A stretch of 64,000 nt of DNA from Planctomycetota bacterium (GCA_051278165.1 JBNMNW010000002.1:1267-65266); one strand, 5' to 3'; positions 1,702 through 58,248 are shown, numbered from the stretch's first letter. A program made the numbers and translations. The notes: a model not told the origin generated them from the sequence alone.

Positions 1702-1741
1702 CTGCCGATCTACCCTGCAGCGTTACTCGGGCAGCACTGGG

Positions 1742-2731
1742 TTATTCTGGCAGCACTGGCTCGACGAACGTCACACCGTTGTCGAGGGACTTGAGGAACG
1801 CGACCAGTTGGTCGATCTGCTTGTCCGTCAATTCACGATCGAACAGCAGGCCGTCTTTGGCGAATTGGTGCTTAAGACCGCCCGAGGCCATCAGCTTGAC
1901 CGCTTCCTTCAGCGTCGCGACGCTGCCGTCATGGAAGTATGGCGCCGTCTTCGAAACGTCACGCAACGTCGGCGTCTTGAACTTGCCGTTGTCAGCTGCG
2001 TCTTTGGTCTTGTTGGCGCGGCCGAGGTCCGGGTTTTCAGCGGCGAGGCCAATGCCGATGTTGTGGTACGACTTGTCCATGAACAGTGGCGGCGCGTGGC
2101 AGCCAACGCAGCCAGCACTGGAGAACAGTTCTTGGCCGGCCTTCGCTTCAGCGGACAGCTTCTTCTGGTCGTAGAGCGAGTTGCCGCTGCGCAGTGTGCG
2201 CAAGAAGGACGTCAGTGAGTTGACGATCGTCGTCTCGCTGGCATCTTCCTTGAACGCGGCTTGGAACTCAGTCTTGTAGGCTTCAATGCCGTTGAGCGTT
2301 GTGGCGACATCGGCCGGCACGCCACCGAGCTGGCCGGTCCAAGCGGCGAGCACGTTGGACTCAAGGCCAACCTTGCGGCCATCCCAGTAGAGCTCCGGGT
2401 AGTAGCCGCAGTTGTACATCGTCGGCGAGTTGCGGCTGTTCTTGCCACCGTTGTCCTTGACCGAGAAGGCGAGGCCGTCGGAGAACGCCTTGTCGATGTG
2501 GTGGCAGTTTACGCAACCCATCTTGCCGCTCTTGCTGAGTCGCGGATCGAAGAACAGCTTCTTGCCGAGCTCGGCCTTCGCGGCCGTCAGTTCGTTATCG
2601 GCGGCTAGGTCTAGTTGAGCGTTCTCTAGGCCGAGTGGCGCCGTCAACGGGTTGACATCTGCGTGGGTCTCAGAGCCGCAGCTGGTGAAGAACGGGAAAA
2701 GAAGGAGAGTCGATAGGGTCGCGCTACGCAT
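1742..2731 (-). CDS. Di-heme cytochrome c peroxidase (CCP/MauG family), probable lipoprotein
   Basis: Two CxxCH motifs (GCVNCHH, GCVGCHAPPLF) and the conserved APYFHDGS near the C-terminus. The N-terminal signal has a lipobox-like FFTSC. Confidence 0.9.
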   Translation of the reverse strand: MRSATLSTLLLFPFFTSCGSETHADVNPLTAPLGLENAQLDLAADNELTAAKAELGKKLFFDPRLSKSGKMGCVNCHHIDKAFSDGLAFSVKDNGGKNSRNSPTMYNCGYYPELYWDGRKVGLESNVLAAWTGQLGGVPADVATTLNGIEAYKTEFQAAFKEDASETTIVNSLTSFLRTLRSGNSLYDQKKLSAEAKAGQELFSSAGCVGCHAPPLFMDKSYHNIGIGLAAENPDLGRANKTKDAADNGKFKTPTLRDVSKTAPYFHDGSVATLKEAVKLMASGGLKHQFAKDGLLFDRELTDKQIDQLVAFLKSLDNGVTFVEPVLPE

Positions 2732-2839
2732 CGGTTCAACAGCTGGGAGGCCAAAGGGCGAAGTTGCCTTGCGACGTCATGCTAGCGTCATTCGGGCCGC
2801 CGCCACATCTCCTATATATCCCGACCCGTGTAACTGAGC

Positions 2840-2912
2840 CTGCGTACCGTACCCGGTTCAAACCACCAGCGCGCCTAGCGCGCTGGTGGATTGAACCGGG
2901 TACGGTACGCAG
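2840..2912. repeat. 73-bp near-perfect inverted repeat (34-nt arms, 5-nt centre)
   Basis: The arm ctgcgtaccgtacccggttcaaaccaccagcgcg (2840-2873) pairs with 2879-2912 with a single mismatch. It lies 53 nt after the stop of 2965..3534 and about 108 nt upstream of the peroxidase start. Confidence 0.85.
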
Positions 2913-2964
2913 ATCCGGCTGTTGGTGCTCTCGTGGGAAACTCTCGCGGGCAGAGCGGCCGCAG

Positions 2965-3534
2965 TTAGCGCATGCGGCGCAATTGGCGCAGCAGTTGCAG
3001 GTAGCGGCGGTCCTGGGTCAGGGTCCAAGCGGCCTGCGCGTCATACATCATCGCGTATTGGCTATTGAAGCCACGAGCGACACCGAGAATGGGATCGAAG
3101 CCGGCGGGGGCGGCGAGCACGTCGCTCAGCGGGGTTGATGCTTCGACGACTTGGGCCGACTCAGTCATAGACGCGTCCTCGATGCGCACATCGCGCATAC
3201 GCTTTTGGGACGCTTGGGCCGCACGACGGCTTTCGTTCGCCGTCTGTCCGTCTTGCTTGGCGTCCTTTTCGGCCTTGACGATTGCGTCGATGGTCAGATC
3301 GTCCTTCTCAATCTTGAAGACGCTCGACTTCGGCAGCAGGATCTCACCGCCTTCGGTGCGCACGTGGTAGCCATCGTCGTCTTCGGCGACCAGGACACCT
3401 TGGATTAGATTAGGGGAAGAACCAGCTGCCGTGTTTTGCTCGGACTTCGGATCGGTCAACCAGAACTTGTCGGCTTTTGCGGGGGCGCAAATCAGCAATA
3501 CGCCAGCGATCAGGGGGAGGTAACGCATGGTCAA
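2965..3534 (-). CDS. Hypothetical secreted protein
   Basis: Signal peptide MTMRYLPLIAGVLLICAPAKA. Composition is protein-like, and I recognise no family. Confidence 0.6.
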   Translation of the reverse strand: MTMRYLPLIAGVLLICAPAKADKFWLTDPKSEQNTAAGSSPNLIQGVLVAEDDDGYHVRTEGGEILLPKSSVFKIEKDDLTIDAIVKAEKDAKQDGQTANESRRAAQASQKRMRDVRIEDASMTESAQVVEASTPLSDVLAAPAGFDPILGVARGFNSQYAMMYDAQAAWTLTQDRRYLQLLRQLRRMR

Positions 3535-7347: not shown

Positions 7348-8943
7348 TTGCTGAGCGACGCGAGCGGCGCGGCGGCGCTGCGAATCAGTGCCGGGTTGCG
7401 GCGGCAAAAAGTGCGGCTGCCGACAACTTGGCGGCTACGATTTTTCGCAATGCTCGCCGCTGCCGTGACTGCAATGGTGTCTTTCCTGGCACCCGTGCCA
7501 CAGGAGCCGATCACCGTCCACGAGGACATCCAGTATTCGGATGTCGCTCGCCAACCGCGACGTAATCGACTCGATCTGTATCTGCCGACTGCGAAGACTG
7601 CGAAGACCCCTAAGGCTGCGAAGCCGGGGGTTGCTGGGCCGCAGGAATCGGCCGTCGGCGGTGGCGATCTCGAAGCCGGGGATGTCGTGCCGCCGCCGCT
7701 CGTGATGTTCGTGCACGGTGGTTCGTGGACTGGCGGTCACAAGGATAGCTACAAGTGGATGGGGCGGATGCTGGCCGACAACGGCTTTGCTTGCGCGGTC
7801 ATCAACACGCAGTTGTTTCCGTTCGCCAAGCCGGACGTGATGGTCAAAGACTGCGGCCAGGCATTTGGCTTCTTGCACAAGAACGCCAACAAGTATGGCT
7901 TCGACGGCAACCAACTGTTTGTCATGGGCCACTCCTCCGGCGCCCACCTGTCGTGTTGGTTGGCGCTCGACGACGCCCAACTTAAGGCCGCCGGCGTGCC
8001 GAAGAAGGCGTTGCGCGGCTCGGTGTTGTTGTCCGGCGTCTACGACATTCGTTCGCGCCACTTCGCCCTCGATGCGGTCTTTGGGGCGGACTCCGAGTTT
8101 CGCAAGCGCGCGACGCCGCTGTTGCACGCCGACAAGACCGATGCGCCGGTGTTCCTCGCTTGGGCGCAGAAGGACCTGCCCGGTCTAGCGTTGTGCGCGC
8201 GCATGCTGCGTGATCGGTTGCTCGAAGCCGGCGTGCCGGTGGCAGCGCATCAATACCCGGACTGCAATCACGCCGACTACATCTACGCGCTGACGAAGCA
8301 CGAGGATCCGGTGATGAAGGACGTGCTGCAGTTCTTGCACGATCCCCAGAAAGCGACTACCAGGCGGGAAGTGAAGCGCAAGCAGGCTCTGTTGTGGGTC
8401 GCTACGAACGACCGCGAACACGCCGTGGGGGATGCCATTCGCAACGCGATGCAGCCGCATGGTGTCGAAGTGTTGGTGCAAGACTTTGCGGACCCAACCT
8501 GCAACTGTGTCGCCGAGGCATTCCGTCAGCTGTGTCTCGATCGCAAGGCAGCGGATGCGATGTTGCCGAGCTACGTCGGGGGCATCGGCCAAGGCGGCCT
8601 CGCTGCTGCGACCGCGCCATTGACGGCACGCAAGGATGGTCTGCTCGGTCGTATCGTTGCAGGTATCGCGTTGGACTCGCGTTCGTTGGCCGCTTTCAGT
8701 CAGCGTTCGTTCGCCGAAGATACGAACTACCTGACAGAGTCGCGACTACTCAGCGTGCTGGGCGACCAGGACTCGAAAGAGAAGCGTTCGCAGTCGATGT
8801 CCCGCACGTCGTCGCTACTTCGTAAGGGGCTGGAAGCGCACCCCGTCGAGTTGGCCAACACGACGGTCGAAGCCGCCTTGCTGGCAGTGCGCGCCGACGA
8901 CAGTTTGGTCGTGCCGATGCTGCTGGCGTTTTTGTTCCCGTAG
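7348..8943 (+). CDS. Alpha/beta hydrolase (esterase/lipase-like) with extra C-terminal domain
   Basis: Oxyanion-type VMFVHGGSWTGG and nucleophile elbow GHSSGAH (GxSxG). An alternative start at ATG 7450 (MLAAAVTAMVSFLAP) would give a cleaner signal peptide. Confidence 0.75.
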   Translation: MLSDASGAAALRISAGLRRQKVRLPTTWRLRFFAMLAAAVTAMVSFLAPVPQEPITVHEDIQYSDVARQPRRNRLDLYLPTAKTAKTPKAAKPGVAGPQESAVGGGDLEAGDVVPPPLVMFVHGGSWTGGHKDSYKWMGRMLADNGFACAVINTQLFPFAKPDVMVKDCGQAFGFLHKNANKYGFDGNQLFVMGHSSGAHLSCWLALDDAQLKAAGVPKKALRGSVLLSGVYDIRSRHFALDAVFGADSEFRKRATPLLHADKTDAPVFLAWAQKDLPGLALCARMLRDRLLEAGVPVAAHQYPDCNHADYIYALTKHEDPVMKDVLQFLHDPQKATTRREVKRKQALLWVATNDREHAVGDAIRNAMQPHGVEVLVQDFADPTCNCVAEAFRQLCLDRKAADAMLPSYVGGIGQGGLAAATAPLTARKDGLLGRIVAGIALDSRSLAAFSQRSFAEDTNYLTESRLLSVLGDQDSKEKRSQSMSRTSSLLRKGLEAHPVELANTTVEAALLAVRADDSLVVPMLLAFLFP

Positions 8944-12146: not shown

Positions 12147-13169
12147 ATGCCCGAAGCGAGTTCCGCGATGCCCAATGACGCGCCGCAGCCATTGCGGTCC
12201 GAAGAGCTCGAACTAGTTTCGCGCATCGTTGCGGCGTTGCGTGCGTGCGCTACGGATGACGCCAGAGAATCGATTCGGGCCATTAAGCACCACCTGCAGA
12301 ACCTCGCGCTGTTTGGCGAGCTGCTCAATCGCTATCCATCGCCGCTGACCGATCAGATTCTGCACGGCAAGAAGCGCGGCCTCGAGACGCTGGTCGACAC
12401 GATGGTGTTGACCGACCAGGCCACCTTTCCGTTCCGCGCGCCGACCCAAGCACTGGTTGGTCGCACAATGAACATGGCGCAGATCAACTTCCTGCGCATG
12501 TTGTGGCATCTCGCTGGCAGCCTGCCGGCCGGTGACGATGCTAAGAAGCTTGGCTGTGAGGACGCGTTCGAACTGCGCGAAGCGGCGGCGCATCGGTTGC
12601 GCGCCGCAGTGCATACGAGGTTGGTCGAAGAAGTGCTCGTCGACATCGTGACCGATGCATTAGTGGGGCGCTCCCTGCGGGCTCAAGGTGCTCGCAGCCT
12701 CGCGCATCTGTGGGGCAACCGCCTCACTTGGCGCGTGCACGACTTCTTCCCGATCCTCGCGGCAACCTGGGAGGCGCGACAACGCGTGCAGGTGATCGGT
12801 GGAACGTTGGCCGGTAGCTGCGAGTTGATGCAGTTGATGACCAAGGGCGGCGATGCCGAGTTCGTCGATCTGTTCACTGACTGCGACTACGGCGAAGTGG
12901 AGCTGCAGGCGTTCCGCGAGTTCTTGTTCGGTACCTCGTCCGAAGAGCTCGACCGCCTTGCTGAGCGCATGGCAACCGAAGGCCTGACCAGCATCGAGCT
13001 CGACAGCCGGATCGGCGAAGTCACGCGCGACTCGGGCTCGATCCTGTTCGAGTTCTTCCGCACGCGCTTGGTGCAGTGTAGTTCTCGCCGCGTCGCTGGG
13101 CTACCAGGCCCAAGGCATACTGCCGAGGGCTACGTGATGCTTGCGTGGCTGCAGAAGCAGTGCCCGTAG
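12147..13169 (+). CDS. Hypothetical protein (helical, cytoplasmic)
   Basis: A 340-aa ORF with protein-like composition and no motif I recognise. Its stop codon lies inside a tandem repeat. Confidence 0.6.
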   Translation: MPEASSAMPNDAPQPLRSEELELVSRIVAALRACATDDARESIRAIKHHLQNLALFGELLNRYPSPLTDQILHGKKRGLETLVDTMVLTDQATFPFRAPTQALVGRTMNMAQINFLRMLWHLAGSLPAGDDAKKLGCEDAFELREAAAHRLRAAVHTRLVEEVLVDIVTDALVGRSLRAQGARSLAHLWGNRLTWRVHDFFPILAATWEARQRVQVIGGTLAGSCELMQLMTKGGDAEFVDLFTDCDYGEVELQAFREFLFGTSSEELDRLAERMATEGLTSIELDSRIGEVTRDSGSILFEFFRTRLVQCSSRRVAGLPGPRHTAEGYVMLAWLQKQCP

Positions 13170-13226
13170 AGCAGTGCCCGTAGAGCAGATCGCCGGCAGC
13201 AGATCACCGGCAGCAGAGCTTGCACA
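13157..13226. repeat. Five tandem 14-nt units starting GCAG
   Basis: gcagtgcccgtaga x2 (perfect), gcagatcgccggca/gcagatcaccggca, and gcagagcttgcaca. The array fills the gap between convergent stops at 13169 and 13228. Confidence 0.9.
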
Positions 13227-13227
13227 C

Positions 13228-15942
13228 CTAGTGCGCTTCAAGCCAGTTCGCGCCAACGCCGAGGCTGACTTCTAGTGGCACCTTGAGGTCCGCAGCGCCG
13301 ACCATCTCGTCGCGCAACAGGCGTTCGACTTCGAGGCGCTCTTCATCCGGCACGTCGAGTATCAGTTCGTCATGAACCTGCAGCAGCATCTTCGTCTGCA
13401 GGCCACGAGTCTCTAGGGCCGCGTGCACCGCCAGCATCGCCCGTTTGACGATGTCGGCGGCGGCACCCTGAATCGGCGTGTTGACAGCCATGTTCTCGGC
13501 GGCGATGCGCTGCATGGCGTTGGTTGAGTCGATGTCTGCGAGTGGCCGGCGGCGACCGAACATCGTGCGCACTTCCTTCTCGATGCGGGCGTGCTCGAGC
13601 GACCGGTCGAGGTATTCCTTCACACCCGGCAAAGCCCGGAAGTAGCTGTTGATGAACTTCTTGGCCTCCGGCGGTCGCATGCCGGTTTCGTTGGCGAGGC
13701 GGGACGCGCCCATGCCATACATCAGCCCGTAGTTGATGATCTTTGCTTGGTTGCGCAGCTCGGGCGTAACCATCGTTGGCAACAGACCGTGCACCAGGGC
13801 CGCGGTGCGTTCGTGGATGTCTTCGCCTTGGTTGAACGACTCGACTAGCGCTTTGTCTTCCGACAGGTGCGCCAGGATGCGCAGTTCGATCTGCGAGTAG
13901 TCGGCGGACATCAGCTGCCAGCCCTTCTTCTTGGCAACGAACGCGGCGCGCACCTTGCGGCCCTCTTCGGTGCGGATCGGAATGTTCTGCAGGTTGGGGT
14001 CTTCGCTACTCAGGCGTCCGGTTGCGGCGACGGCTTGATTGAACGTCGTGTGTACGCGGTCAGTGTCGGGCTGCGCCAACGTCGGCAAGGTGTCGATGTA
14101 GGTGCTCTTGAGCTTCGATAGCTGGCGCCACTCGAGCACCAGTTGCGGCACTTCATGTTTGGCCGCGAGTTTCTCCAGCACGTCGTGGTCGGTCTTGTAT
14201 TGGCCCTTGGGCGTGCGCTTCGGTTTGAGCTTGGCGAGCAGGTGCACTTCTAGCTCGTCGAACAAGACCACGCCGAGCTGTTGCGGTGACGCTAAGTTGA
14301 ACTCGTGGCCGACGCGTTGGAAGACGCGGTCCTGCAGGATTTCGATGCGCGACCCCATCTCGCGCGACAGCGTCGCCAGGTGCTCACGATTGATCGCGAT
14401 ACCGGTCCACTCCATCTCGAGCAGCACCGGCACGAGCGGCAATTCCATCTCGCGATACAGCGTCATCGTGCCGTAGCGCTCGAGCAGCTCTTTCATTACA
14501 GGCACCAATCGCAGCACCAGGTCGGCTTCTTCGCAGACGTAGTTGCCCACCAGTTGTGGATCGACTTCGGCGAACGTGCGCTGCTTCTTACCGGTGCCGA
14601 CCAGGTCCTTGGCCGATGTCTTCTTGAACGTGAAGTGCTTTAGCGCCAAGTCATCGAGAGAATGCGAGCGCAGGCCGGGTTCGGTGCAGTAGCTGGCCAG
14701 CATGATGTCTAGGTCGATGCCGTTCAGGTTGACGCCGCCCAGCTTGATCTCGGGCGCGCGCAACGCGGCGAGCAAGCGCTTGAGGTCGTGCACCTGCTTC
14801 TTCGGCGTCTCGGCCTCAAGCAACGGGCGCAGCATGTCGAGATGCGCCTTGTTGGCCTCGCCAAGCGGCACGTAGACCGCTTCACCGGGAGCCGTGGCGA
14901 ACGCCATGCCGACCAGCCGCCGGGTTTGCAGCGTCTTGCCCGTGGTCTCCGCGGCAACGGCGAATTGCTCACACGTCTGCAGTCGTTCGATCAACGCCTG
15001 CAATTCGGCAAGCCCTGTGATCACCGAATACTTCTGTTCGACGTCGTCCTGTGGCGGGGCCTTGGCGGCCAGGTCGGCAAGCAAGTTCTTGAACCCGAGC
15101 CGCTGGAACAATGGCAGCAGCTTCTCTGGGTTCGGAGCCGCCGGGCCGATGTCTTCGATGGCGACGCCGACGTCGAGGTCGAGCTGCAGCGTTACGAGTT
15201 GTTTGGACAGTCTGGCGAGTTCGCGGTTCTCGTCGAGTGACTTCTTGATCGACGGCTTCTTGACCTCTTCGAGGTGCTCGTAGATGCCATCCATCGTGCC
15301 GAACTGAACGAGCAGGTCGACGGCCGTCTTCTTGCCGACCTTTGGCACACCTGGCACGTTGTCCGAGCTGTCGCCCATCAACGCCAGCATGTCAACGATC
15401 GCTGTCGGCGGCAGACCCCACTTTGCTTCGCACGACGTAGCGTCAAAGATCTCTGGCTTGCTGGTCGAACTGCGCAGGTTCCAGAGCTTGATCTTGTCGT
15501 CGACGATCTGGAGGAAGTCCTTATCGCCGGTGACGATGAACACCTCCATGCCGGCATCGCGCGCCCGCACCGCGAGCGTGCCAATCACGTCATCGGCTTC
15601 ATGCTCCTCAGCCGCGACAACCTGCAGCCCATAGCCGTCGACGGCTTCGCGGATGTCGTCGAGTTGGATCGCCATCTCGTCCGGCATCTTGGTGCGCGTC
15701 GACTTGTATTCCGGGTAGATCTTGGTGCGCAGCAAGTCGCCGCGCGGCCCGTCGAACGAAATCGCCATCGCGTCCGGTCGCTCGCGCTCGATCAGCGCCC
15801 GTAGCGTCGTGCAGAACCCGTAGGTCGCAGCGGTGGGGTGGCCATCGTCGGTCGTCAGAGGAGCGCGACCGGTGCCTTGGAAGGCGAAGAAACTGCGGTA
15901 GGCCAGTGCCGTACCATCGATCAGGAAGAGCCGCTTCGCCAT
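13228..15942 (-). CDS. polA: DNA polymerase I
   Basis: 5' nuclease N-terminus MAKRLFLIDGTALAYRSFFAF (start moved to 15942). Polymerase motifs are LMSADYSQIELRILAHLS, QAKIINYGLMYGMGA and LLQVHDELILDV. Confidence 0.95.
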   Translation of the reverse strand: MAKRLFLIDGTALAYRSFFAFQGTGRAPLTTDDGHPTAATYGFCTTLRALIERERPDAMAISFDGPRGDLLRTKIYPEYKSTRTKMPDEMAIQLDDIREAVDGYGLQVVAAEEHEADDVIGTLAVRARDAGMEVFIVTGDKDFLQIVDDKIKLWNLRSSTSKPEIFDATSCEAKWGLPPTAIVDMLALMGDSSDNVPGVPKVGKKTAVDLLVQFGTMDGIYEHLEEVKKPSIKKSLDENRELARLSKQLVTLQLDLDVGVAIEDIGPAAPNPEKLLPLFQRLGFKNLLADLAAKAPPQDDVEQKYSVITGLAELQALIERLQTCEQFAVAAETTGKTLQTRRLVGMAFATAPGEAVYVPLGEANKAHLDMLRPLLEAETPKKQVHDLKRLLAALRAPEIKLGGVNLNGIDLDIMLASYCTEPGLRSHSLDDLALKHFTFKKTSAKDLVGTGKKQRTFAEVDPQLVGNYVCEEADLVLRLVPVMKELLERYGTMTLYREMELPLVPVLLEMEWTGIAINREHLATLSREMGSRIEILQDRVFQRVGHEFNLASPQQLGVVLFDELEVHLLAKLKPKRTPKGQYKTDHDVLEKLAAKHEVPQLVLEWRQLSKLKSTYIDTLPTLAQPDTDRVHTTFNQAVAATGRLSSEDPNLQNIPIRTEEGRKVRAAFVAKKKGWQLMSADYSQIELRILAHLSEDKALVESFNQGEDIHERTAALVHGLLPTMVTPELRNQAKIINYGLMYGMGASRLANETGMRPPEAKKFINSYFRALPGVKEYLDRSLEHARIEKEVRTMFGRRRPLADIDSTNAMQRIAAENMAVNTPIQGAAADIVKRAMLAVHAALETRGLQTKMLLQVHDELILDVPDEERLEVERLLRDEMVGAADLKVPLEVSLGVGANWLEAH

Positions 15943-16026
15943 GCCACCGTTGTAGCGTGCGGCGGCTCCGCATCGAAGCGCGATCACGCACCGAGCGGGC
16001 TCAGATGCGGCTGTTTGCTCTTGCTT

Positions 16027-16719
16027 CTAATCGTGAGACGGCAGCAACACCTTGATCAGCACGAACCCGCCGATCAGCACGAGCGTGCCGAGCGTGGTCA
16101 CCAGCGCGAAGCGCTTCTCGATGAACTCCTTCATGCCAGGGCCGTAGCGTTTGAATAGCCACGCGACCAAGAAGAAGCGCGCCGAGCGGCCGACCGCCGA
16201 AGCGATCAAGAACATCGGGAAGTTGATTGCACAAACACCCGCCAGGATCGTGATCACCTTGTAGGGAATCGGCGTGAAGGCCGCGGCGAAGACGATCCAG
16301 AAGTCCCAGTTGCTGTAGAGCTCGCGCACCGACTCGACGGAGTGCGGGCTGACGCCCGGCACGTAGTCGTAGAAGAAGGTGCGCACGCCATCGTTCTCCC
16401 ACAGGAAGTATCCGATGCCGTAGCCCGCCATGCCGCCAACGACCGAGCCGATCGCGCACCAGGTGGCGAACCGGTAGCTCTTATTCACCGTGCCGATGCA
16501 CATCGCGATCAGCAACACGTCCGGCGGCACCGGGAAGAAGCTGCTCTCAGCGAACGCCAAGAAAAATAAGGCCGGCACCGCGTACGGCGTCGGAGCCCAG
16601 GCTAGCACCCAGTCGTACATGCGACGCGGGATGGTCGTGATCTTGGCCCAAAGGCCCTTGCCACCGGTTGGCTGACCGGCGTCCTTATCGGTGCTGTTCA
16701 CAGCGTTCCTATCGGCCAT
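16027..16719 (-). CDS. YqaA/DedA-family (SNARE-associated) membrane protein
   Basis: FAESSFFPVPPDVLL motif and multiple TM helices. The start is set at MADRNAV (16719), which overlaps the recJ stop by 11 nt. The longer 16896 start would overlap recJ extensively. Confidence 0.75.
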   Translation of the reverse strand: MADRNAVNSTDKDAGQPTGGKGLWAKITTIPRRMYDWVLAWAPTPYAVPALFFLAFAESSFFPVPPDVLLIAMCIGTVNKSYRFATWCAIGSVVGGMAGYGIGYFLWENDGVRTFFYDYVPGVSPHSVESVRELYSNWDFWIVFAAAFTPIPYKVITILAGVCAINFPMFLIASAVGRSARFFLVAWLFKRYGPGMKEFIEKRFALVTTLGTLVLIGGFVLIKVLLPSHD

Positions 16720-18460: not shown

Positions 18461-18493
18461 GTGGGGTGGGGTATGGTAGCGACCTATCCCGCG

Positions 18494-22176: not shown

Positions 22177-22731
22177 CTAGACCGCGGACGGTGGCTCGTC
22201 GTCTTTCACGGGGTCCGCCGGCGGCTCGGCGGCGGACGGCTCAATTGCTGGCGCTTCGTCTGCTGCTGCTTCGGATACCGCTGCTTCGTCGGGCGCGGGG
22301 GCTTCGGTTGCCGGAGATACAGCGGGGGAATCGCCAGTCGCATCATCGCCGGTCGCACCATCGCCTGCCGTCTCACCCTCAGGATGAAGTTCGTTCAGCA
22401 GCTTGTTCATGCGGATCGCCGCGCCGATGCCTTCGTCGAACAGGAACTCAAGGTGGGGGACTGAGCGCGTGTGCAGCACTCGAGCCATCTCACGCTGACA
22501 GAAGCCGCGCGCGCGGCCGAGCACGGCGGCGCTGTCGCGCTTGGCCTTCTCTTCTTGGTCCGAGCCTGCGAGCACCGACCAGTAAGCCTTGCAGTGGCTG
22601 AACTCGGTATCGAGCTCGACGCGCGTGATGGTGACCATGCCAAGCTTGGGATCGGCTAGGTCACGATGCAGCACCTCAGCGAGGCGCTGTTTGATCTGTT
22701 GCTTGAGGCGTGCGAGGCGGCGTTCGTTCAT
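22177..22731 (-). CDS. rbfA: Ribosome-binding factor A with long acidic C-terminal tail
   Basis: The N-terminal ~115 aa are RbfA-like (RLARLKQQIKQRLAEVL..ITRVELDTEFSHCKAYWSV). It lies in the nusA-infB operon context. Confidence 0.85.
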   Translation of the reverse strand: MNERRLARLKQQIKQRLAEVLHRDLADPKLGMVTITRVELDTEFSHCKAYWSVLAGSDQEEKAKRDSAAVLGRARGFCQREMARVLHTRSVPHLEFLFDEGIGAAIRMNKLLNELHPEGETAGDGATGDDATGDSPAVSPATEAPAPDEAAVSEAAADEAPAIEPSAAEPPADPVKDDEPPSAV

Positions 22732-30764: not shown

Positions 30765-30825
30765 CGCGCTACCGGGGTCGGCTATTTTCGCGGCAATATC
30801 CACCGGTAGAACCGTTGTTAGGTGG

Positions 30826-31232: not shown

Positions 31233-31282
31233 CTGGCTAACTGCAGTTGCACTCGCAGCTAAGCCTGTGGCGATTCGGCCGG

Positions 31283-31435: not shown

Positions 31436-31512
31436 GGTTGCGTCCTCAGTCTTGGTTGGTTGTTCGGTTGTTCGACGCGCGCCTAGATGACGCGCGCCTA
31501 GTCGTGAAGCAG

Positions 31513-35006: not shown

Positions 35007-35080
35007 GGAGGCAACTGTAGGGACTCGGCTAGGCGCTGCCAGCGAACGCTTGCTCGGCCCGTTCGGATGGAAGTGGCGAC

Positions 35081-38180: not shown

Positions 38181-38216
38181 TCTTGGACGGGCCGCTGTTC
38201 TTGGAAGGGCCGCTGC
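38181..38216. repeat. Two tandem 18-nt units
   Basis: tcttggacgggccgctgt / tcttggaagggccgctgc. The array begins 33 nt after the murA stop. Confidence 0.85.
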
Positions 38217-43750: not shown

Positions 43751-45208
43751 TTGGCAGAGTTTCTCGGCGAAGGCCTCACCTACGACGACGTCCTGTTGGT
43801 GCCGCAAATGGCATCGGCGCTGCCGCGTGACGTTGTCACGACGACCCGGTTTTGCCGCGGCGTGACGGTCCAGGCGCCGATTGCCTCCGCCGCCATGGAC
43901 ACGGTCACCGAATACCGCATGGCGGTCGGGCTGGCCCAGCAAGGTGGCATCGGCATCGTGCACAAAAACCTGTCGATCGAGGGCCAGTGCCACGAGGTCG
44001 ACAAGGTCAAGCGCTCGGCCAATGGCATCATCCAAGATCCGGTGGCTCTGTCGCCAGACGACACGGTGGGGCAGGCCAAAGACCTGATGCGTTCGCATAA
44101 GATCAGCGGCTTACCAGTCGTTGATGACAAGCGCGTTGTCGTGGGCATCCTGACGAATCGCGACCTGCGCTTCGTCGATGATCGTGACACCTTGGTCGGA
44201 GCCGTGATGACCAAGCAAAACCTGGTCAAGGCACAGCCCGGCACGACGCTAGATCAAGCGCGCCAGATCCTGCGCACCAACAAGGTCGAGAAGCTGATCC
44301 TGGTCAAGGAAGACGGCACCTTGGCTGGCTTGATCACGATGCGCGATATTCGCGGCACCGAGGAATATCCGATGGCAGCGCGCGATGAGCGCGGACGACT
44401 ATTGGTTGGTGCGGCGGTCGGCGTGCACGACCTCGAGCGAGTCGCCAAGTTGGTCGAAGCTGGTGTCGACGTCGTTGTCGTTGATACCGCCCACGGCCAC
44501 AGCAAGAACGTCATCGACACCGTCATGGCGATCAAAAAGCTGCTGTCGATTCCAGTCGTTGCAGGCAACGTCGGCAGCTACGACGGCGCCATGGCGTTGG
44601 TCGACGCGGGCGTTGACGGCGTTAAGGTCGGTATTGGTCCCGGCTCGATCTGCACGACGCGCGTGGTTACCGGATGTGGCGTGCCACAGTTGACGGCCGT
44701 GCTCGACGCTGTTCGTGCGTGTGCGTCGGCCGACGTGCCGGTGATCGCCGACGGTGGCATCCGCCAGTCGGGCGACATCGTTAAGGCACTTGCCGCAGGT
44801 GCTTCGACCGTCATGCTCGGCTCGCTACTCGCAGGACTCGATGAGTCTCCCGGCGAAACGATTCTCTATCGCGGCCGTTCCTTCAAGACCGTGCGCGGCA
44901 TGGGCTCACTCGGAGCGATGGAGAAGGGCTCGGCCGATCGTTACGCGCAAGGCGACGTGCAGGACAAGATGAAGTTCGTGCCCGAAGGCGTCGAGGGCAT
45001 GGTGCCCTACAAGGGCCCGGTCGCGAACTACGTATACCAGCTCGTCGGCGGGATTCGCTCCGGCATGGGCTACTGCGGTTCGCGCACGCTGAAGGAGCTT
45101 ACCGACAAGGCCAAGTTCTTGCGGGTCAGCCCGGCGACGTTGCGCGAGTCGCACCCACACGACATTCAAATCACCAAAGAAGCGCCTAACTACTCAGGCG
45201 AAGCATGA
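43751..45208 (+). CDS. guaB: IMP dehydrogenase
   Basis: A CBS pair, catalytic [13 protein letters not shown], and [11 protein letters not shown]. The proposed TTG start gives (M)[18 protein letters not shown], with an AGGAGA Shine-Dalgarno 7 nt upstream. Confidence 0.9.
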
Positions 45209-46851
45209 GCCAGCAAGCAGACGAAGGCAGCAGTGTGGTTGAGAGCAGTGTGGTTGAGGGCAGTGCGGTTGAGAGCCGTGCGGTTGAAAGCAGCGTGGTC
45301 GATGAGGTGTTGGGCGGCGTCCTGATCATCGACTTCGGCGCGCAATACTGTCAGTTGATTGCCCGCCGCATTCGAGAACTCGGGGTCTACTCGCGCATCA
45401 CCGTGCCCGATCGCGCGATGTTCACGCTCAAGCATATGCGGCCGAAGGCGATCATCCTCAGCGGTGGTCCGTGCTCGGTGTATGCGCACGATGCGCCAGC
45501 TCTCGATCCTGCGATCCTTGAGCAAGGTGTGCCCGTGCTCGGCATCTGCTATGGCTTGCAGTGGTTGGCGCAACACACCGGCGGCACTGTCTTGCCAGCC
45601 AAGAGTGGTTCCGAATACGGCCGCACTGAGTTGCAGCCGATCGACACCGCGGACCTGCTCGCCGGCGTTCGCCAAGATGGCATCGTCTGGATGTCGCACG
45701 GTGACAAGGTGCAGGAGCTGGGGCCGGGCTTCGAAGTCATGGCCAAGAGCGAGCCGTGCCCGTTTGCAGTCGTTGGCGATCGCAAGCGCAAGATGTTTGG
45801 CCTGCAGTTCCATCCGGAAGTGAACCACACGGTCGACGGCCAACGCATCCTCGAGAACTTCGTGCTCGGCATCGCTGGTTGTGACAACGATTGGAACCCT
45901 GGCAACCTGGCCGAGCGCAAGATTCAGGCGGTCAAGGACCTGGTCGGCGAGACTGGCGAAGTGGTGCTTGGTTTGTCCGGTGGCGTCGATAGTTCGGTTG
46001 CCGCGGTGCTAGTGCACCGTGCCATCGGCACGCGTCTGCACTGCGTGTTCGTCGACAATGGGCTGCTTCGTCAAGGCGAGCGTGAAGGCGTTGAGGAGCT
46101 GTTCCGCGACGACTACCACATGGATCTGAAGGTTGTGGATGCCGCCGACCGGTTCTTGTCCGAGTTGCAGGGGATTACCGATCCCGAGCAGAAGCGCAAG
46201 ATCATCGGCCGCATCTTCGTCGAGATCTTCGAAGAGGAATCCAAGGGCTACAAGAACGCTAACTTCCTTGGCCAAGGCACCCTCTATCCGGATGTCATCG
46301 AGTCGGTCGCCGCTCACGGTGGCGCCACGTCGACGATCAAGAGCCATCACAACGTTGGCGGTTTGCCCGCGCACATGAAGATGAAGTTGGTCGAGCCGCT
46401 GCGGGACCTCTTCAAGGACGAGGTGCGTGCGTTGGGTCGTGAGCTTGGCCTGCCATCCTCGCTGGTCGATCGCCAACCGTTCCCTGGGCCTGGTCTGGCG
46501 GTGCGTTGTCTTGGCGAAGTCACGCGCGAGAAGCTCGAACCGCTTCGGCAAGCGGATGCCGTGGTGCGTGAAGAGATCGAATCACGCGACCTCCACAAGG
46601 ATCTGTGGCAATACTTTGCGGTTTATGTGCCGCAAAAAACCGTAGGTGTGAAGGGCGATGCGCGCGTTTATCAGGACGTGTGCGTAGTTCGCTTGGTTTC
46701 GAGCCAGGACGCCATGACGGCGGATTGGGAGACCCTGCCAACGGATGTGATGCGCCGCGTGTCGAGTCGTATCCTCAATGAAGTGGACGGGTTCGCGCGG
46801 GTGTGCCTCGATATCAGTTCGAAGCCGCCCGGCACGATTGAGTGGGAATAG
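45205..46851 (+). CDS. guaA: GMP synthase (glutamine-hydrolysing)
   Basis: GATase Cys in VLGICYGLQW, PP-loop LGLSGGVDSSVAA, and C-terminal KPPGTIEWE. The ATG overlaps the guaB stop (ATGA). The first ~35 codons are repeat-derived, so a later start is possible. Confidence 0.9.
   Translation: MSQQADEGSSVVESSVVEGSAVESRAVESSVVDEVLGGVLIIDFGAQYCQLIARRIRELGVYSRITVPDRAMFTLKHMRPKAIILSGGPCSVYAHDAPALDPAILEQGVPVLGICYGLQWLAQHTGGTVLPAKSGSEYGRTELQPIDTADLLAGVRQDGIVWMSHGDKVQELGPGFEVMAKSEPCPFAVVGDRKRKMFGLQFHPEVNHTVDGQRILENFVLGIAGCDNDWNPGNLAERKIQAVKDLVGETGEVVLGLSGGVDSSVAAVLVHRAIGTRLHCVFVDNGLLRQGEREGVEELFRDDYHMDLKVVDAADRFLSELQGITDPEQKRKIIGRIFVEIFEEESKGYKNANFLGQGTLYPDVIESVAAHGGATSTIKSHHNVGGLPAHMKMKLVEPLRDLFKDEVRALGRELGLPSSLVDRQPFPGPGLAVRCLGEVTREKLEPLRQADAVVREEIESRDLHKDLWQYFAVYVPQKTVGVKGDARVYQDVCVVRLVSSQDAMTADWETLPTDVMRRVSSRILNEVDGFARVCLDISSKPPGTIEWE
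45229..45303. repeat. Five tandem 15-bp units at the guaA 5' end
   Basis: agcagtgtggttgag x2 (perfect), then ggcagtgcggttgag, agccgtgcggttgaa and agcagcgtggtcgat. These encode SSVVE SSVVE GSAVE SRAVE SSVVD. Confidence 0.9.
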
Positions 46852-49792: not shown

Positions 49793-51790
49793 ATGACTAC
49801 CGACGGCAATGAAGATCTGATCGCTGACTACCTCGGGGAAGCCCACGACTACCTAGAGCAGCTCAACACCATCTTGATGGAGTTAGCCGATCTTGAAGAT
49901 GGTTGGCCGGACGATCGTGCCAACGACATGTTCCGTAGCGCTCACTCGCTTAAGGGACTGTCCGCGTGCTTTGGCTTTGAGGCGACCAGCACGGTTACCC
50001 ATCACATGGAGAGCCTGCTTAGCAAGGTTCGTGAAGGGGCCTTGGCGCCGACGCAGGGCATTGTTAGAGCACTGTTCGATTCCATCGACTGTCTCACCAA
50101 CCTGACTGCTGAGATCGCAGCAGGTGGCCAAGAGGGATCCGCTCCGCAGTTGCTCGTGGATCAGCTGCAACAGCTGTGTCGCGGCGTTGACGCAGTGGCG
50201 CCCAAGGAGGCTGCGAAGAAAATCAGCGCGGCTGGGGGTGGTGATACGCCGCCAAAGGCTGCGGGGGCGATGGCGCAATCTGATGCCAACGAGACTGTGC
50301 GTGTGCGCATGGATCGACTCGACCTCATGGTCAATTTGACTGGCGAATTGGTCGTCGCTCGGTCGCGCTTCCAGCTGGTGACGCAATTGATGCGGCCACT
50401 ACAGCGTCTAGATGAAATGGGGCTGGCCTGGCGTGAGGCGCAAGGCAGCATGGATGAGTTGCGCGCGATGTCGCAGGCGCAGTCGCAAGACATGGGCCGC
50501 TTGCCAGCACTTGTCGATCGCATGAGCGAGCAGATGCAGCGCTTCAACTCGAACTGGCAAGACCTGCATGGTGTCGGTCGCGTGCTGCGCGATCTTGACG
50601 ATGTTGCCTACGACCTCGATAGCGTCGTTGGCGGTATCCATGAGGCCGTGCTGCAGTTGCGCATGGTCCCGCTCGACAGTGTCTTCCGCCGCTTGCAGCG
50701 CGTCGCTCGCGATACCGCGGAGACGGTCGGCAAGGCGATCAACTTTGAAGTCACTGGTGGCGACACCCAAATTGACAAGCGCGTCGCCGACGAGTTGATC
50801 AACCCGCTCGTGCACATGCTGCGCAACTCCATTGACCACGGCTTTGAAACCGCCGAGGAACGCAAGGCAAGCGGCAAGTCCGAGCGTGGTTGCCTGAGCG
50901 TCAAGAGTTTCCAGCGTGGCAGTTCCGTCGTGATCGAGATTCGCGATGACGGCCGCGGCATTGATCCTGTTCGCATGGTGAAGAAGGTCACGGAGCTGGG
51001 GTTGATGACTCCCGAAGAGGCCAACGCCATGTCGCCTAGAGAAGCGCAGCGGCAGATCTTTGCCGCTGGATTCTCGACGGCTGCCGAAGTGACCGAAGTG
51101 TCTGGTCGCGGTATGGGCATGGACATTGTGGCCGCAACGATCAAGAGTTTGCGCGGCAGTATCGAACTCGAATCTGTGGTCGGCGTTGGCACATGCTTTA
51201 CGATTCAATTGCCGCCGAGCATGTCGATCTTGGCCAGCTTGCTAATTGAAGTAGGCGATACGATGTTCGCACTGCCGTTGACGGAAGTGCGCGAGATCAT
51301 CGAGTTGACCGAGGACCGACTGCACAGCGTGCAAACCAAGCCGGTGGTCATCGTGCGCGACCAACCGATGCCCTTCGTGCTATTGCCAGAGGCCTATCGG
51401 TTCGCCCATGGGGTGCTGTCCGGTAAGCAGAAATCCAAACCCGCGCACGCCATTGTGTTTGGCTACGCCGGCAACGAGATCGTGCTTGGTGTCGATCGAT
51501 TGGTTGGCAAGGAAGACCTTGTCATCAAGCCTCTGTGTGCTGAGTTGACATCGGTACCTGGGCTTGCTGGCATGGCCATTCGCGGCGACGGCAAGGTTAC
51601 CTTGATCCTCGATCCATCTGGCTTTGCCGACTTCGCGATGTCTAGGCAGCGTTCCCCGCGGCCTGACAAACGTGGTCGCGACAACACTGCGAGTCCGGAT
51701 GAGACTGCGAGTCCGGACAACACTGCGAGTCCGGGTGTGACTGCGAGTCCGGATGAGACGGTTGTCGATGCGGTGCCCGCCCCTGTGTAG
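49793..51790 (+). CDS. cheA: Chemotaxis histidine kinase CheA (no fused receiver)
   Basis: P1 His in FRSAHSLKGLS, N-box LVHMLRNSIDHG, G1 IRDDGRGID, G2 SGRGMGMDIV, and a CheW-like P5 domain. The tail is low-complexity. Confidence 0.95.
   Translation: MTTDGNEDLIADYLGEAHDYLEQLNTILMELADLEDGWPDDRANDMFRSAHSLKGLSACFGFEATSTVTHHMESLLSKVREGALAPTQGIVRALFDSIDCLTNLTAEIAAGGQEGSAPQLLVDQLQQLCRGVDAVAPKEAAKKISAAGGGDTPPKAAGAMAQSDANETVRVRMDRLDLMVNLTGELVVARSRFQLVTQLMRPLQRLDEMGLAWREAQGSMDELRAMSQAQSQDMGRLPALVDRMSEQMQRFNSNWQDLHGVGRVLRDLDDVAYDLDSVVGGIHEAVLQLRMVPLDSVFRRLQRVARDTAETVGKAINFEVTGGDTQIDKRVADELINPLVHMLRNSIDHGFETAEERKASGKSERGCLSVKSFQRGSSVVIEIRDDGRGIDPVRMVKKVTELGLMTPEEANAMSPREAQRQIFAAGFSTAAEVTEVSGRGMGMDIVAATIKSLRGSIELESVVGVGTCFTIQLPPSMSILASLLIEVGDTMFALPLTEVREIIELTEDRLHSVQTKPVVIVRDQPMPFVLLPEAYRFAHGVLSGKQKSKPAHAIVFGYAGNEIVLGVDRLVGKEDLVIKPLCAELTSVPGLAGMAIRGDGKVTLILDPSGFADFAMSRQRSPRPDKRGRDNTASPDETASPDNTASPGVTASPDETVVDAVPAPV
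51686..51757. repeat. Four tandem 18-bp units in the cheA 3' end
   Basis: The unit is actgcgagtccgg followed by 5 variable nt, and it encodes (TASP-x-x) x4 (TASPDE, TASPDN, TASPGV, TASPDE). Confidence 0.9.
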
Positions 51791-55284: not shown

Positions 55285-55944
55285 TCAACCCTTCTTGGAT
55301 TCGTTACCTGGCAGTTCCTTGCGGTTCTTCAGGATCTTGTTGATCAGGCCGTATTCGAGCGCCTGACTGGCATCGAGCCAGAAGTCGCGGCGGGACGACT
55401 CGGTGACTTCTTCGACCGTCTTGCCACAGGTTCCGGCAATGATGCGGTTGTAGCGGTCGCGTAGCTTCAGGATCTCGCGCGCGGTGATGTCCAGGTCAGA
55501 TGCCTGGCCGCGGCCGCCGGTTGACGGCTGGTGGATCATGAAGCGGCTTTCCGGCATGCAGTAGCGTTGGCCATCGTCACCGGCGAGGTGGATCAGGATG
55601 CCAGCCGAAGCGGACAGGCCGTTGACCACGGTGCGGATCGGCGGCGCAATGAAGCGCAGCAAGTCGTAGATCGCAAAGCCAGCGTCGGCGCTGCCGCCTG
55701 GCGAGTTGATGAAGACCGTGATCGGGGCGTCCGGGTCCTTTGCTTCCATAGCGAACCCACGCACGGTGGTTTCCTTGAGCATCTTGTCGTCGACCGCGCC
55801 GCTGATTAGCAGCGTGCGCGAATCAAAGAGCGCCTTTTCGAACGGGCTGGAGAGGCCTTCGCCCTTCTTTTCGTTCTTGTCGGAGTCGCTGTCCTCATCT
55901 TCGAGACGGAGGCGGCGGGGATCAAAGTCGATTGGATTCTGCAT
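55285..55944 (-). CDS. clpP: ATP-dependent Clp protease proteolytic subunit (ClpP-like) with acidic N-terminal extension
   Basis: FINSPGGS, a Ser in GLSASAGILI, a His in FMIHQPS, and a C-terminal RDFWLDASQALEYGLI. The start is set at MQNPIDF (55944). Confidence 0.85.
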   Translation of the reverse strand: MQNPIDFDPRRLRLEDEDSDSDKNEKKGEGLSSPFEKALFDSRTLLISGAVDDKMLKETTVRGFAMEAKDPDAPITVFINSPGGSADAGFAIYDLLRFIAPPIRTVVNGLSASAGILIHLAGDDGQRYCMPESRFMIHQPSTGGRGQASDLDITAREILKLRDRYNRIIAGTCGKTVEEVTESSRRDFWLDASQALEYGLINKILKNRKELPGNESKKG

Positions 55945-56797
55945 CTTGGCGTGCTTTCGCGTGAACGACGGGCAGCTGGCCCGCTGTTGTTCTTTCGGTG
56001 ATTGGCGGTGAGGAAGTTGAATCGGAACCGCCGATCGCAGGGGACGGTGGATAGCGCACCGAACGGTAGAGAGCAACGTCGCAAACTCGGATGCGGTGTC
56101 TTTGGACAATCTCGATGGCAACGGTAATTGAGGAACCCACTTGCGCGCCTCGTGATACCGCGATACTCTCCGCGCCCGTCTGCGGGAGCGACTGTTTAGG
56201 ACAGCGCACCCTGGATCGAACCCTGGATCTCGCCCTTGGCTGCAAAGCCGTTTGAGTCCTCGCCAAGCCGGTGAGGCAAGTTGGGGTGAGCGCGGTTGGA
56301 GCCATTTTGGTGACCACGCTGCGTCTTCTCGCCACTATGGCTATCAGCCATACGGTAAATACGAGCGCACCGTAGTCGCCTGAAACTTCAGTCGCCTGGA
56401 GCTTTAGAAGAGGAGTCAAGCCCTATGGCCTTTGAGCCAACGGTCTCGACGCCAACACTAGATTCCGAAACATTAGATTCCGAGCACGTGCTCTAAGCAC
56501 TTGTGACAGAACCTCGAGGGACATGTCGCATCAAGAAGGTCTTGATGCGCTGTCTCCTGAGCAGGTCGAACAGAATTACTGGTCGACTACGATAGAGGCG
56601 AAACGCAGTTTTCCCAACGTGTTGCGATCGTTCGCATCCATTTGGCCAACTGGCTGTCGTCTGAAAAGCGCAGCGGTCGCTTTGCGGTATCCGTGCAAAC
56701 TTCTCAGGGAGCATCTGCTTCCTGAGTGCATTGGACTACGGCAAATCGGCCCGGACAGGAGCACGGCAGCAAAGCGCTGCCAGTCGCGACGCACTGT

Positions 56798-58174
56798 ATG
56801 AGTATCACGGAGAACGATTTCGGGGGCGGCATTGAAAGCTCGCCCGATCAAGGTGGTGGACCCGATCGCAAATGGCGACGCGGTGGTCGTAGGCGACGTC
56901 GTCGAGGCGGCGGCGGCGGCGGCGGTGGCCAAGGTGGCGGCGGCCAAGTGGGCGGCGGCGGCCAAGGCGGCGGCCAAGGCGGCGGTGGCGGCCAAGGCGG
57001 CGGCGGCCAGGGAGGCAACTTCCAGGTCGAGGGCCCAACCGAAGAAGCGATTGGCGTTCTCCAATACACCAAGGAAGGCAATGGCTGGCTTCGCAAGGCG
57101 ATCAACAGCTACATGCCCGACGACATCCCGAACGGCGACACGTTCGTTCCGGGCTCACTGATTCGCCAACATCGCCTGCAGGAAGGTAGCGAGATCGTTG
57201 GCCAAGCTGGCTTCCCGACTCGCGGTCAGCAACGTCTGACGATGGCGGAGGTCGAGAAGGTGGACGGCATGGAGCCGGACGAGCGCAAGGAAGTGCCTCA
57301 GTTCCGCAGTTTGACCGTCATCGACCCCGAGCCGATGTTCGTGTTGGCTCCAGGTAGCGACGAGAACATTTCGCTGCGCATTGTCGATCTGCTCTGTCCG
57401 ATTGGATACGGCACGCGTGGCCTCGTCGTGGCACCGCCACGATCGGGCAAGACCGTGCTGATGCAGCAGATCTGCGCATCGATCAGCGAACATCATCCCG
57501 AGGTGCACATCATCGTGCTGCTGATCGACGAGCGCCCTGAAGAGGCGACCGGTTGGAAGCGCAGTGTCACCGGCAAGAACCGCGAAGTGCTGGTCTCGAC
57601 CCTCGACGAAGGTCCCCAGAACCACGTCCTGGTCAGCGAGATCTGCTTGAAGCGCGCCCAGCGCTTGGTCGAAACCGGCCGCGATGTCGTCATCCTGCTC
57701 GACTCGATCACACGATTGACGCGCGCCTACAACTCGGCCCTCGGTGGTCGCGGTGGCGGCACGATGTCCGGTGGTCTCGGTTCGAAGGTGCTCGAAATCC
57801 CGAAGAAGTTCTTCGGCGCGGCGCGCAACTGTGAAGACGGTGGCTCGCTGACGATCCTCGGCACGACGCTGGTCGACACCGGCTCGCGCATGGACCAGGT
57901 CATCTTCGAAGAGTTCAAGGGCACTGGCAACCAGGAGCTCGTGCTCAACCGCCAGCTCGCCGAACGCCGCGTGTATCCGGCGATTGACGTCGAGCTGTCC
58001 GGCACGCGTAAGGAAGAGTTGCTGCTTGGCGCCGAAGTGACCCAGCGCCTCTACACGCTGCGCCGGGTGCTTTCGCGCATGAACGCGCTCGATGCGATGC
58101 CGCTGTTGATCGACCGTCTGATGAAGACGGATACGAACCAGCAGTTCCTCGACAGCTTCCGCTTGGAAGAGTGA
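56798..58174 (+). CDS. rho: Transcription termination factor Rho with Arg/Gly/Gln-rich N-terminal low-complexity region
   Basis: Walker A VAPPRSGKTVLMQ, Walker B VLLIDERPEE, and RVYPAIDV. A CSD-like RNA-binding region (GVLQYTKEGNGWLRKA) is present. The start is set at MSITENDF. Confidence 0.95.
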   Translation: MSITENDFGGGIESSPDQGGGPDRKWRRGGRRRRRRGGGGGGGGQGGGGQVGGGGQGGGQGGGGGQGGGGQGGNFQVEGPTEEAIGVLQYTKEGNGWLRKAINSYMPDDIPNGDTFVPGSLIRQHRLQEGSEIVGQAGFPTRGQQRLTMAEVEKVDGMEPDERKEVPQFRSLTVIDPEPMFVLAPGSDENISLRIVDLLCPIGYGTRGLVVAPPRSGKTVLMQQICASISEHHPEVHIIVLLIDERPEEATGWKRSVTGKNREVLVSTLDEGPQNHVLVSEICLKRAQRLVETGRDVVILLDSITRLTRAYNSALGGRGGGTMSGGLGSKVLEIPKKFFGAARNCEDGGSLTILGTTLVDTGSRMDQVIFEEFKGTGNQELVLNRQLAERRVYPAIDVELSGTRKEELLLGAEVTQRLYTLRRVLSRMNALDAMPLLIDRLMKTDTNQQFLDSFRLEE

Positions 58175-58197
58175 TCGTAGGTTGGTCGGCCGTTTGG

Positions 58198-58248
58198 TCG
58201 AGCAAACGGTGACATCGAGCAAACGGTGACATCGCCGATACGGTGAGA
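58198..58248. repeat. Three tandem 17-nt units
   Basis: tcgagcaaacggtgaca x2 (perfect) plus the degenerate tcgccgatacggtgaga. The array begins 24 nt after the rho stop. Confidence 0.9.

Follow-up and report, generated by a model that had tools for sequence, protein, structure and literature searches.

The 64-kb stretch examined here (C2:1267-65266, hereafter the window) belongs to a planctomycete metagenome-assembled genome (MAG) of 5.93 Mb with 436 contigs, 62% GC and an estimated completeness of ~90%. The Rho protein encoded in it has its nearest matches in MAGs labelled Planctomycetota. Its gene content is typical for planctomycetes, including a 3-keto-disaccharide hydrolase fused to cytochrome c together with polA, infB, guaB, guaA, cheA, rho and recJ, and both the genes and the spacers between them carry arrays of short head-to-tail duplications (Table 1). 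All 14 array loci listed in a first-pass annotation of this sequence were present, and Tandem Repeats Finder (TRF) returned 13 of them at the same coordinates and periods. At the remaining locus, 31474-31527, it reported the second array only (31498-31529, 15 bp x2.1), while the first one (31474-31503) stayed under the TRF score but was readable in the sequence. About six additional arrays with a TRF score of at least 50 were found in the window. As annotated, three arrays begin 24, 30 and 33 nt past the stop codons of rho (58174), a 107-aa open reading frame (ORF; stop at 31149) and a 460-aa ORF (38148), respectively, and the arrays at 1723, 13157 and 31498 cover the stop codons and the last codons of ORFs 1742..2731(-), 12147..13169(+) and 31513..33396(-).

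Table 1. Tandem arrays in the window, with the loci of the first-pass annotation followed by the additional arrays (positions counted from the first nucleotide of the window; MITE, miniature inverted-repeat transposable element)
Position	Strand	Feature	Evidence
1722..1759		19 bp x2 over the stop codon of the di-haem cytochrome c peroxidase ORF (1742..2731, minus)	TRF; Pfam CCP_MauG
7587..7623		9 bp x4.1, imperfect, in frame, N-terminal part of alpha/beta-hydrolase ORF (7348..8943); weakest of the 14 loci	TRF (75% matches), Pfam
13156..13217		two adjoining 14-bp arrays between convergent ORF 12147..13169 and polA (13228..15987); the first contains the stop of 12147..13169	TRF
25320..25527	-	15 bp x13.9, in frame, low-complexity N-terminal region of IF-2 (23147..26074)	TRF; Pfam IF-2, GTP_EFTU
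30709..30744	+	perfect 18 bp x2, the outermost 18 bp of a MITE terminal inverted repeat; element end runs to ~30770	TRF, sequence
31179..31236		18 bp x3.2, start 30 nt past the stop of the 107-aa ORF 30826..31149	TRF
31474..31529		two adjoining 15 bp x2 arrays; the second holds the stop and last four codons of transporter ORF 31513..33396 (minus)	TRF, sequence
34984..35012		15 bp x1.9 duplication	TRF
38181..38215		18 bp x1.9, start 33 nt past the stop of ORF 36766..38148	TRF
42004..42036	+	15 bp x2.2, in frame, in ORF 41582..43198	TRF
45229..45303	+	15 bp x5, in frame (SSVVE-type pentapeptide), N-terminus of GMP synthase guaA (45205..46851)	TRF (x4.7 at 45229-45299), Pfam
51680..51759	+	18 bp x4.1, in frame, C-terminal tail of CheA (49793..51790)	TRF; Pfam CheW, HATPase_c, Hpt
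56454..56483		15 bp x2 duplication upstream of rho	TRF
58198..58246		17 bp x2.9 (two perfect and one decayed copy), start 24 nt past the rho stop (58174)	TRF; Pfam Rho_RNA_bind, ATP-synt_ab
2955..2990		additional array, 18-19 bp x1.9	TRF score 51
17131..17175		additional array, 21 bp x2.1, within recJ ORF 16709..18628	TRF score 62
22330..22365		additional array, 15 bp x2.4, in ORF 22177..22731; weaker 15-bp array at 22253-22290	TRF
26368..26417		additional array, 15 bp x3.3, in ORF 26208..27425	TRF

The arrays were surveyed by TRF in the window and in the whole genome, with a Markov-5 shuffle of the same contigs as the null. The genome yielded 1,470 TRF rows, corresponding to 1,195 non-redundant arrays, against 101 rows in the shuffle, i.e., the strong excess above chance suspected from the window is present throughout the genome. 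Because the TRF score threshold distorts the period spectra, perfect tandem duplications were also counted directly, using a single script for all genomes and a minimum of 12 bp for the comparisons per Mb. The perfect duplications with periods from 12 to 18 bp numbered 92, 27, 49, 235, 60, 22 and 46, while the shuffle gave 0–3 per period. Genes were predicted with our own rough codon-usage caller (4,143 genes, 85% coding), the starts being those of the longest ORF.

The most distinctive feature of the duplications, overlooked in the first-pass annotation, is the narrow range of their unit length from 12 to 18 bp. Genome-wide, perfect duplications were not in excess at periods 10–11 (15 and 7 vs 19 and 11 in the shuffle), and the periods 19–21 were nearly empty (5, 2 and 6). 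The intergenic perfect duplications with periods from 11 to 20 bp (6, 25, 24, 44, 76, 57, 18, 12, 5 and 2) formed a unimodal distribution with a mode at 15–16 bp, which is given as a range because coding sequence missed in gene prediction may add to the 15-bp class between genes. Units divisible by three, already noticed in the genes of the window, accounted for 249 of the 253 perfect in-gene events (98%) vs 44% of the intergenic ones, and the in-gene ratio of 12-, 15- and 18-bp units (65:151:33) was close to the intergenic one after frame filtering (25:76:12). The single intergenic peak and the matching in-gene ratio therefore mean that one process with an intrinsic length of ~15 bp acts everywhere, its products being filtered by the reading frame.

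The density of perfect duplications in this genome, 99 per Mb, was higher than in every control sampled, including GC-matched proteobacterial replicons: 0 per Mb in S. meliloti pSymB (200 kb, 62% GC), 20 in C. necator pHG1 (100 kb, 62% GC), 0 in E. coli K-12 (50 kb) and 0–20 both in eight closed Planctomycetota genomes from other families (760 kb) and in three other families of the same order. Relatives, sampled in part of their genomes, gave 60 per Mb in G001 (a closed single-contig genome), 54 in G009, 43 in G002 and 132 in G011 (30 kb only) within the same genus, 30 in G015 and 15 in G017 of the same family, and 86 in G024 from a neighbouring family. Pooled, the genus without the present genome contained 47 events in 815 kb, vs 7 events in 1,042 kb of eleven Planctomycetota genomes, family f1 and G024 excluded. 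The signature is thus a trait of the lineage, elevated approximately ten-fold over the background, for which neither the phylum as a whole nor the GC content accounts. TRF density alone was a poorer lineage separator: relatives with a GC content of at least 70% have 2–3 arrays per 10 kb, mostly imperfect and with periods of 18–24 bp. No earlier description of a 15-bp-peaked duplication signature in Planctomycetota was found in the literature.

The concentration at gene 3′ ends seen in the window also holds for the whole genome: 26.0% of the arrays lie within 30 nt of a stop codon vs 7.4 ± 0.8% at permuted positions, a 3.5-fold enrichment. A stop codon is overlapped by 9.0% of the arrays (3.6% permuted), while start codons showed little enrichment (10.1% vs 7.5%). 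The intergenic 15% of the genome holds 39% of the arrays, and 53% are in coding sequence, where the first 20% and the last 10% of the gene are the richest. The spacers between convergent genes have the most arrays (0.96 per kb), followed by tandem (0.46) and divergent (0.20) spacers, the density rising with how many gene 3′ ends a spacer has, and in the tandem spacers the arrays are skewed to the stop of the upstream gene (67, 47, 31, 25 and 18 per quintile). Genome-wide, there was no preferred offset of 24–33 nt, the array density declining smoothly with the distance from the stop. Such a pattern is predicted by a selection filter, because a stop-spanning duplication leaves the protein unchanged and 3′ spacers carry few signals, while promoter spacers carry many; the positional bias would, accordingly, come from selection rather than from targeting.

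Comparison with related species demonstrated a turnover of the arrays. Among the arrays with flanks that could be placed in the sampled DNA of G009, G002 and G011, 35 of 43 ortholog comparisons differed in length or copy number, 24 of the 35 by close to a whole number of units; in most cases the relative had a single copy. Thus, the N-terminal 15-bp unit of GuaA is present in five copies here, three in G002 and one each in G009 and G011. The spacer downstream of polA holds two 14-bp arrays in this genome, one copy of the first unit in G009 and none in G002, while unrelated arrays occupy it in G011 (17 and 14 bp), G003 (13 bp x4) and G010 (14 bp x3). The array in ORF 41582..43198 is absent in G002 and G009, and in G011 another 15-bp stretch is duplicated a few bases from this position. 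Of the other window arrays, the duplication at 30709-30744 is present as one copy in G009, that at 31179..31236 is absent from the G009 ortholog, the unit at 31474..31529 is single in G009, G002 and G011, and that at 34984..35012 is single in G002 and G009.

An older in-phase copy was found beside 379 of the 456 perfect two-copy arrays of 12–18 bp (83%), although arrays cover only ~1% of the genome. Most recent events therefore arise within existing arrays, as slipped-strand mispairing would explain. Two-copy duplications do expand to multi-copy arrays, the copies per array ranging genome-wide from 2 to 119. The 77 events without an older copy, used as a proxy for births, likewise span 12–18 bp. 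The 531 perfect arrays each have ~30 sites at which a first substitution would end the perfect match; assuming a steady state, this would roughly correspond to the fixation of one duplication or expansion, in order of magnitude, for every few hundred neutral substitutions.

Taking these results together, the arrays are probably the footprint of a mutational process, i.e., a lineage-specific high rate of short tandem duplication with subsequent expansion by slippage and a filter of selection, and not functional elements. In this genus, segments of 12–18 bp (mode 15–16) would undergo head-to-tail duplication at an exceptionally high rate, wherever they lie in the genome. As soon as two copies are present, the array would become a hotspot gaining and losing whole units, most simply by slipped-strand mispairing in replication, while the older copies would decay by point substitution, giving the typical combination of two perfect copies and one decayed copy. 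Purifying selection would purge most events: out-of-frame duplications in genes would be lost, in-frame ones would survive mainly in disordered N- and C-terminal tails, those over or just past a stop codon would be neutral and accumulate, and promoter-bearing spacers would retain few. The length range may reflect a physical step of the birth process, a candidate being the size of Okazaki 5′ flaps that escape processing, as in Rad27/FEN1-dependent duplications. The first-pass annotation had proposed a very active slippage or microhomology duplication process filtered by selection; such a process fits every test run, except that microhomology was not evident at the youngest events.

Several observations weigh against this interpretation. 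The junction microhomology of the 77 young events was near chance (33, 18, 7 and 3 events with 0–3 nt vs 41, 22, 9 and 3 expected), with ~16 events having 4–9 nt of extra match, and this is not predicted for the birth step by either classical slippage or microhomology-mediated duplication. Nor would generic slippage obviously lead to such sharp length bounds, with nothing above background at 10–11 bp and almost nothing at 19 bp and above. The search for a genetic cause was negative: the genus has MutS1, Ku occurs patchily, and genes for RecJ, ExoVII, the Pol I 5′-nuclease and RNase HI/HII-like proteins are present. A selection filter and targeting at gene 3′ ends are not fully separable from sequence alone, and with crude gene calls the N-terminal enrichment and the height of the intergenic 15-bp peak are approximate. 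The weak microhomology is notable but not decisive, because 50–60% of the perfect duplications in reference genomes are also without visible microhomology (Wei et al., 2026, bioRxiv 10.64898/2026.02.28.708716).

A local hotspot was found at the ends of one of the two MITE families of this genome. MITE-2, with the terminal inverted repeat (TIR) TGTYRGTACGGTGCCTGGACAA.AAACAACA, has ~109 ends and 30 paired elements of 116–314 bp (e.g., C185:8056-8230 and C12:40514-40676). The array at 30709-30744 duplicates the first 18 bp of its TIR (element end 30727-30770), and the window seems to contain a solo end of this family just upstream of ORF 30826..31149. At 15 of 104 MITE-2 ends, precisely the first 15–18 bp of the element itself were repeated in tandem, compared to 1.95% of random sites (p=2e-9), while the controls, namely positions 45 nt inside the MITE-2 element (0/106) and the second MITE family (0/85), were negative. 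Because each outer copy has the variant bases of its own element, the tip duplications are repeated local events; among the arrays, only those at MITE tips share sequence. The location of the hotspot at a site that the transposase must nick hints that nicks may trigger duplication. The second family, MITE-1, lies outside the window (e.g., C22:11701-11868) and consists of 168-bp elements with CTAG-tagged TIRs, CTAGGAGTCTGCG.CACGGGAG, in 32 full-length copies; it was probably active recently, since most copies are 95–100% identical. No target-site duplication of 2–20 bp was present in the 30 paired MITE-2 elements, which are therefore not the source of the genome-wide pattern, and MITE-1 had no long flanking repeats. 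Transposon target-site duplications and excision footprints resemble the arrays in having a defined length, no need for microhomology and, here, a hotspot at the termini of one MITE family. They differ in that no element lies between the copies and up to 14 copies occur in the window, and, with neither family producing a long target-site duplication, transposon footprints were rejected as the source.

Three other explanations were weighed. Downstream arrays might be functional RNA or DNA elements maintained by selection, such as Rho-utilisation (rut) sites, terminator substitutes, 3′-untranslated region (UTR) stabilisers or protein-binding sites, and a functional 3′-UTR role was the alternative offered in the first-pass annotation. 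The enrichment next to stop codons, the highest density between convergent genes and the occurrence of some array in the same polA-downstream spacer of different species are in its favour, as is the general rarity of T-tracts in 3′ regions (1–2%) in a genome with few U-tract terminators. However, a T4+ tract followed only 1% of the 3′ arrays, and the 283 3′ arrays read on the sense strand of the upstream gene (A.19, C 0.306, G 0.304, T.20) had no C>G bias and thus no C-rich, G-poor rut signature. Predicted folding was no better than in array-free 3′ segments (z -0.80 vs -0.58, p=0.41), so that terminator or rut function was rejected for want of a structure, composition or T-tract signal. The units are locus-specific, as annotated, with no shared consensus and the best hexamers in at most 6% of them; of the two weak cores noted before, ACGGTG was real (20 of 346 intergenic units vs 4 expected) but minor, being traced largely to one MITE family. 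Furthermore, there is no preferred distance to the stop codon, the same process with the same length spectrum operates inside genes, where over half of the arrays lie, and the arrays are not conserved between species, the orthologous positions being mostly single-copy. A functional role is, hence, very improbable. Artefacts of short-read assembly could be suspected in a 436-contig MAG, but the signature is also present in the closed genome of G001 and in three further independent assemblies, most arrays include diverged copies, which no assembler can invent, and the 12–18 bp periods match no assembler k-mer size. With copy-number series that are coherent and in frame across assemblies, the substitutions between copies and the closed genome, such artefacts are therefore ruled out for practical purposes.

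The third explanation is an undescribed, enzyme-driven process initiated by nicks or breaks, in which a lineage-specific nuclease, transposase or integrase with a ~15-bp ruler would make staggered nicks, fill-in and rejoining would give microhomology-free duplications of the adjoining 12–18 bp genome-wide, with preference for the cleaved ends of one MITE family, and re-cutting would let the arrays grow in phase. If true, the arrays would record the action of a specific DNA-processing activity instead of generic slippage in replication. Such a ruler would account for the narrow unimodal lengths with hard edges, for the chance-level microhomology of the young junctions and for the strong hotspot at the MITE-2 cleavage ends, where the variant bases of the outer copies speak for recurrent events. 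On the other hand, neither MITE family yields a target-site duplication of 2–20 bp, no sequence preference was visible at the breakpoints of the 33 unambiguous young events, and Ku is absent here and in G002, which still has 43 duplications per Mb compared to 54 in the Ku-positive G009. Slippage suffices for the 83% of recent events within existing arrays, and missing microhomology is not distinctive given its frequency in reference genomes (Wei et al., 2026). The ruler enzyme is thus considered unlikely, and a high rate of short tandem duplication with slippage expansion and selection remains the preferred reading.

Inventories of MutS/L-type genes, as recommended in the first-pass annotation, and of Ku, RecJ, ExoVII and RNase H explained nothing of the signature. 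The only MutS_V match in the assembly (C16:23299-23844, 114 bits) is MutS2-like, with no MutS1-grade hit, while MutS1 scored ~260–300 bits in 13 of the 14 relatives from the genus, the two closest among them, and in all 60 other Planctomycetota sampled. The most likely reason for its absence here is an assembly gap, the MAG being 90% complete, and mismatch-repair loss was rejected on the basis of the relatives. Of the 14 genus relatives, 5 have Ku, which is lacking in this assembly and in G002; since its patchy presence does not track the signature, Ku-dependent end joining was rejected. Loss of single-strand exonucleases was rejected as well, with RecJ and the ExoVII large subunit present throughout. 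The 5′-nuclease domain of Pol I is intact (E=4e-50, full profile), and all relatives possess another FEN-like gene. In family f1 and G024, RNase HI is accompanied only by a divergent 323-aa RNase HII-like ORF (DEAG motif, under the Pfam/NCBIfam cut-offs; here C19:34524-35495), the RNase H loci of this assembly being C19:34524-35495 and C19:39064-39315, while other families of the order have a canonical RNase HII and no RNase HI, and G017 has both. Both G024 (high signature) and G017 (low signature) agree with this swap pattern, but 7 of 8 low-signature genomes elsewhere in the phylum have the set-up of this genus, and the RNase H swap was rejected. Replication-transcription conflict was rejected because arrays were equally frequent at co-directional (9.9%) and head-on (10.1%) gene 3′ ends and the decayed copy had no polarity (76 vs 82). 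Palindromic units were rejected with a maximum stem per unit of 3.12 vs 3.21 in controls. As a separate observation, the ExoVII large subunit scored ~200 bits in family f1 vs 270–337 in most other families of the order, the gene being retained in the high-signature lineage in a more divergent form.

Most tandem repeats are considered to arise by tandem duplication and subsequent expansion, while the determinants of its rate and length are poorly known outside yeast. Bacterial minisatellites, or variable-number tandem repeats (VNTRs), evolve by slipped-strand mispairing, and a typical genome has tens of such loci. The arrays are similar to those used in multiple-locus VNTR analysis (MLVA; e.g., Xanthomonas, PMC10174486) in having locus-specific units of 10–25 bp, whole-unit copy changes between close relatives and an in-frame location in proteins as well as a presence in spacers. 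They differ from VNTRs in the ~1,200 loci, the sharp period mode, the mostly 2–4 copies and the absence of any sign of use as contingency loci. In flap-endonuclease defects (yeast rad27 and E. coli polA 5′-nuclease mutants), short tandem duplications dominate the insertions, with a length set by the Okazaki-type flap; the duplications of this type are flanked by 3–12 bp repeats and span 5–108 bp. In contrast to such mutants, the genome studied here has an intact Pol I 5′-nuclease domain and a second FEN-like gene.

In microhomology-mediated tandem duplication (MTD; Dang et al., 2021, PNAS, PMC8639346; Wei et al., 2026), linked by its authors to Okazaki-flap processing (Rad27/FEN1), a single-copy segment is similarly duplicated and then expanded to multiple copies, and the arrays are unstable and variable between isolates or species, with sites of persistence shaped by selection. 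The differences from MTD are the ~10-fold density over the other bacteria sampled, the restriction to a single lineage and the units of only 12–18 bp. Furthermore, recent bacterial duplications have ~13–30% of events at 0 nt and 50–70% with arms of at least 3 bp (Wei et al., 2026), while the young events here had 43% at 0 nt and 25% at 3 nt and more, i.e., no excess of microhomology arms; neither Planctomycetota nor a length mode is mentioned in that work. The signature is, then, a quantitatively extreme, lineage-specific form of a known process, in which tandem duplication leads to minisatellite growth filtered by selection, its unusual part being the tight 12–18 bp range. With its roughly ten-fold rate, its sharp length range and a closed genome available as a reference within the genus, this natural lineage could be used in comparative work to identify the step responsible, be it flap processing, a nuclease or a property of the polymerase. 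Within the clade, the process would constantly rewrite 3′ spacers, duplicate stop-codon regions and lengthen the tails of IF-2, GuaA, CheA and other proteins by pentapeptide repeats. In genomes of this clade, such arrays can also confuse gene prediction and lead the search for RNA motifs or regulatory elements astray.

Two further repeats were seen in the window. The N-terminal part of Rho (56726..58174) contains a Gly/Arg-type low-complexity insert encoded at 56906-57016 by a GGC-rich trinucleotide repeat or a compound repeat of 15–18 bp. A dispersed repeat of ~66 nt (30376-30443), located directly after the stop of ORF 28451..30382, had 18 hits in the genome and is also frequent in G009 and G011, often as inverted pairs ~100 bp apart.

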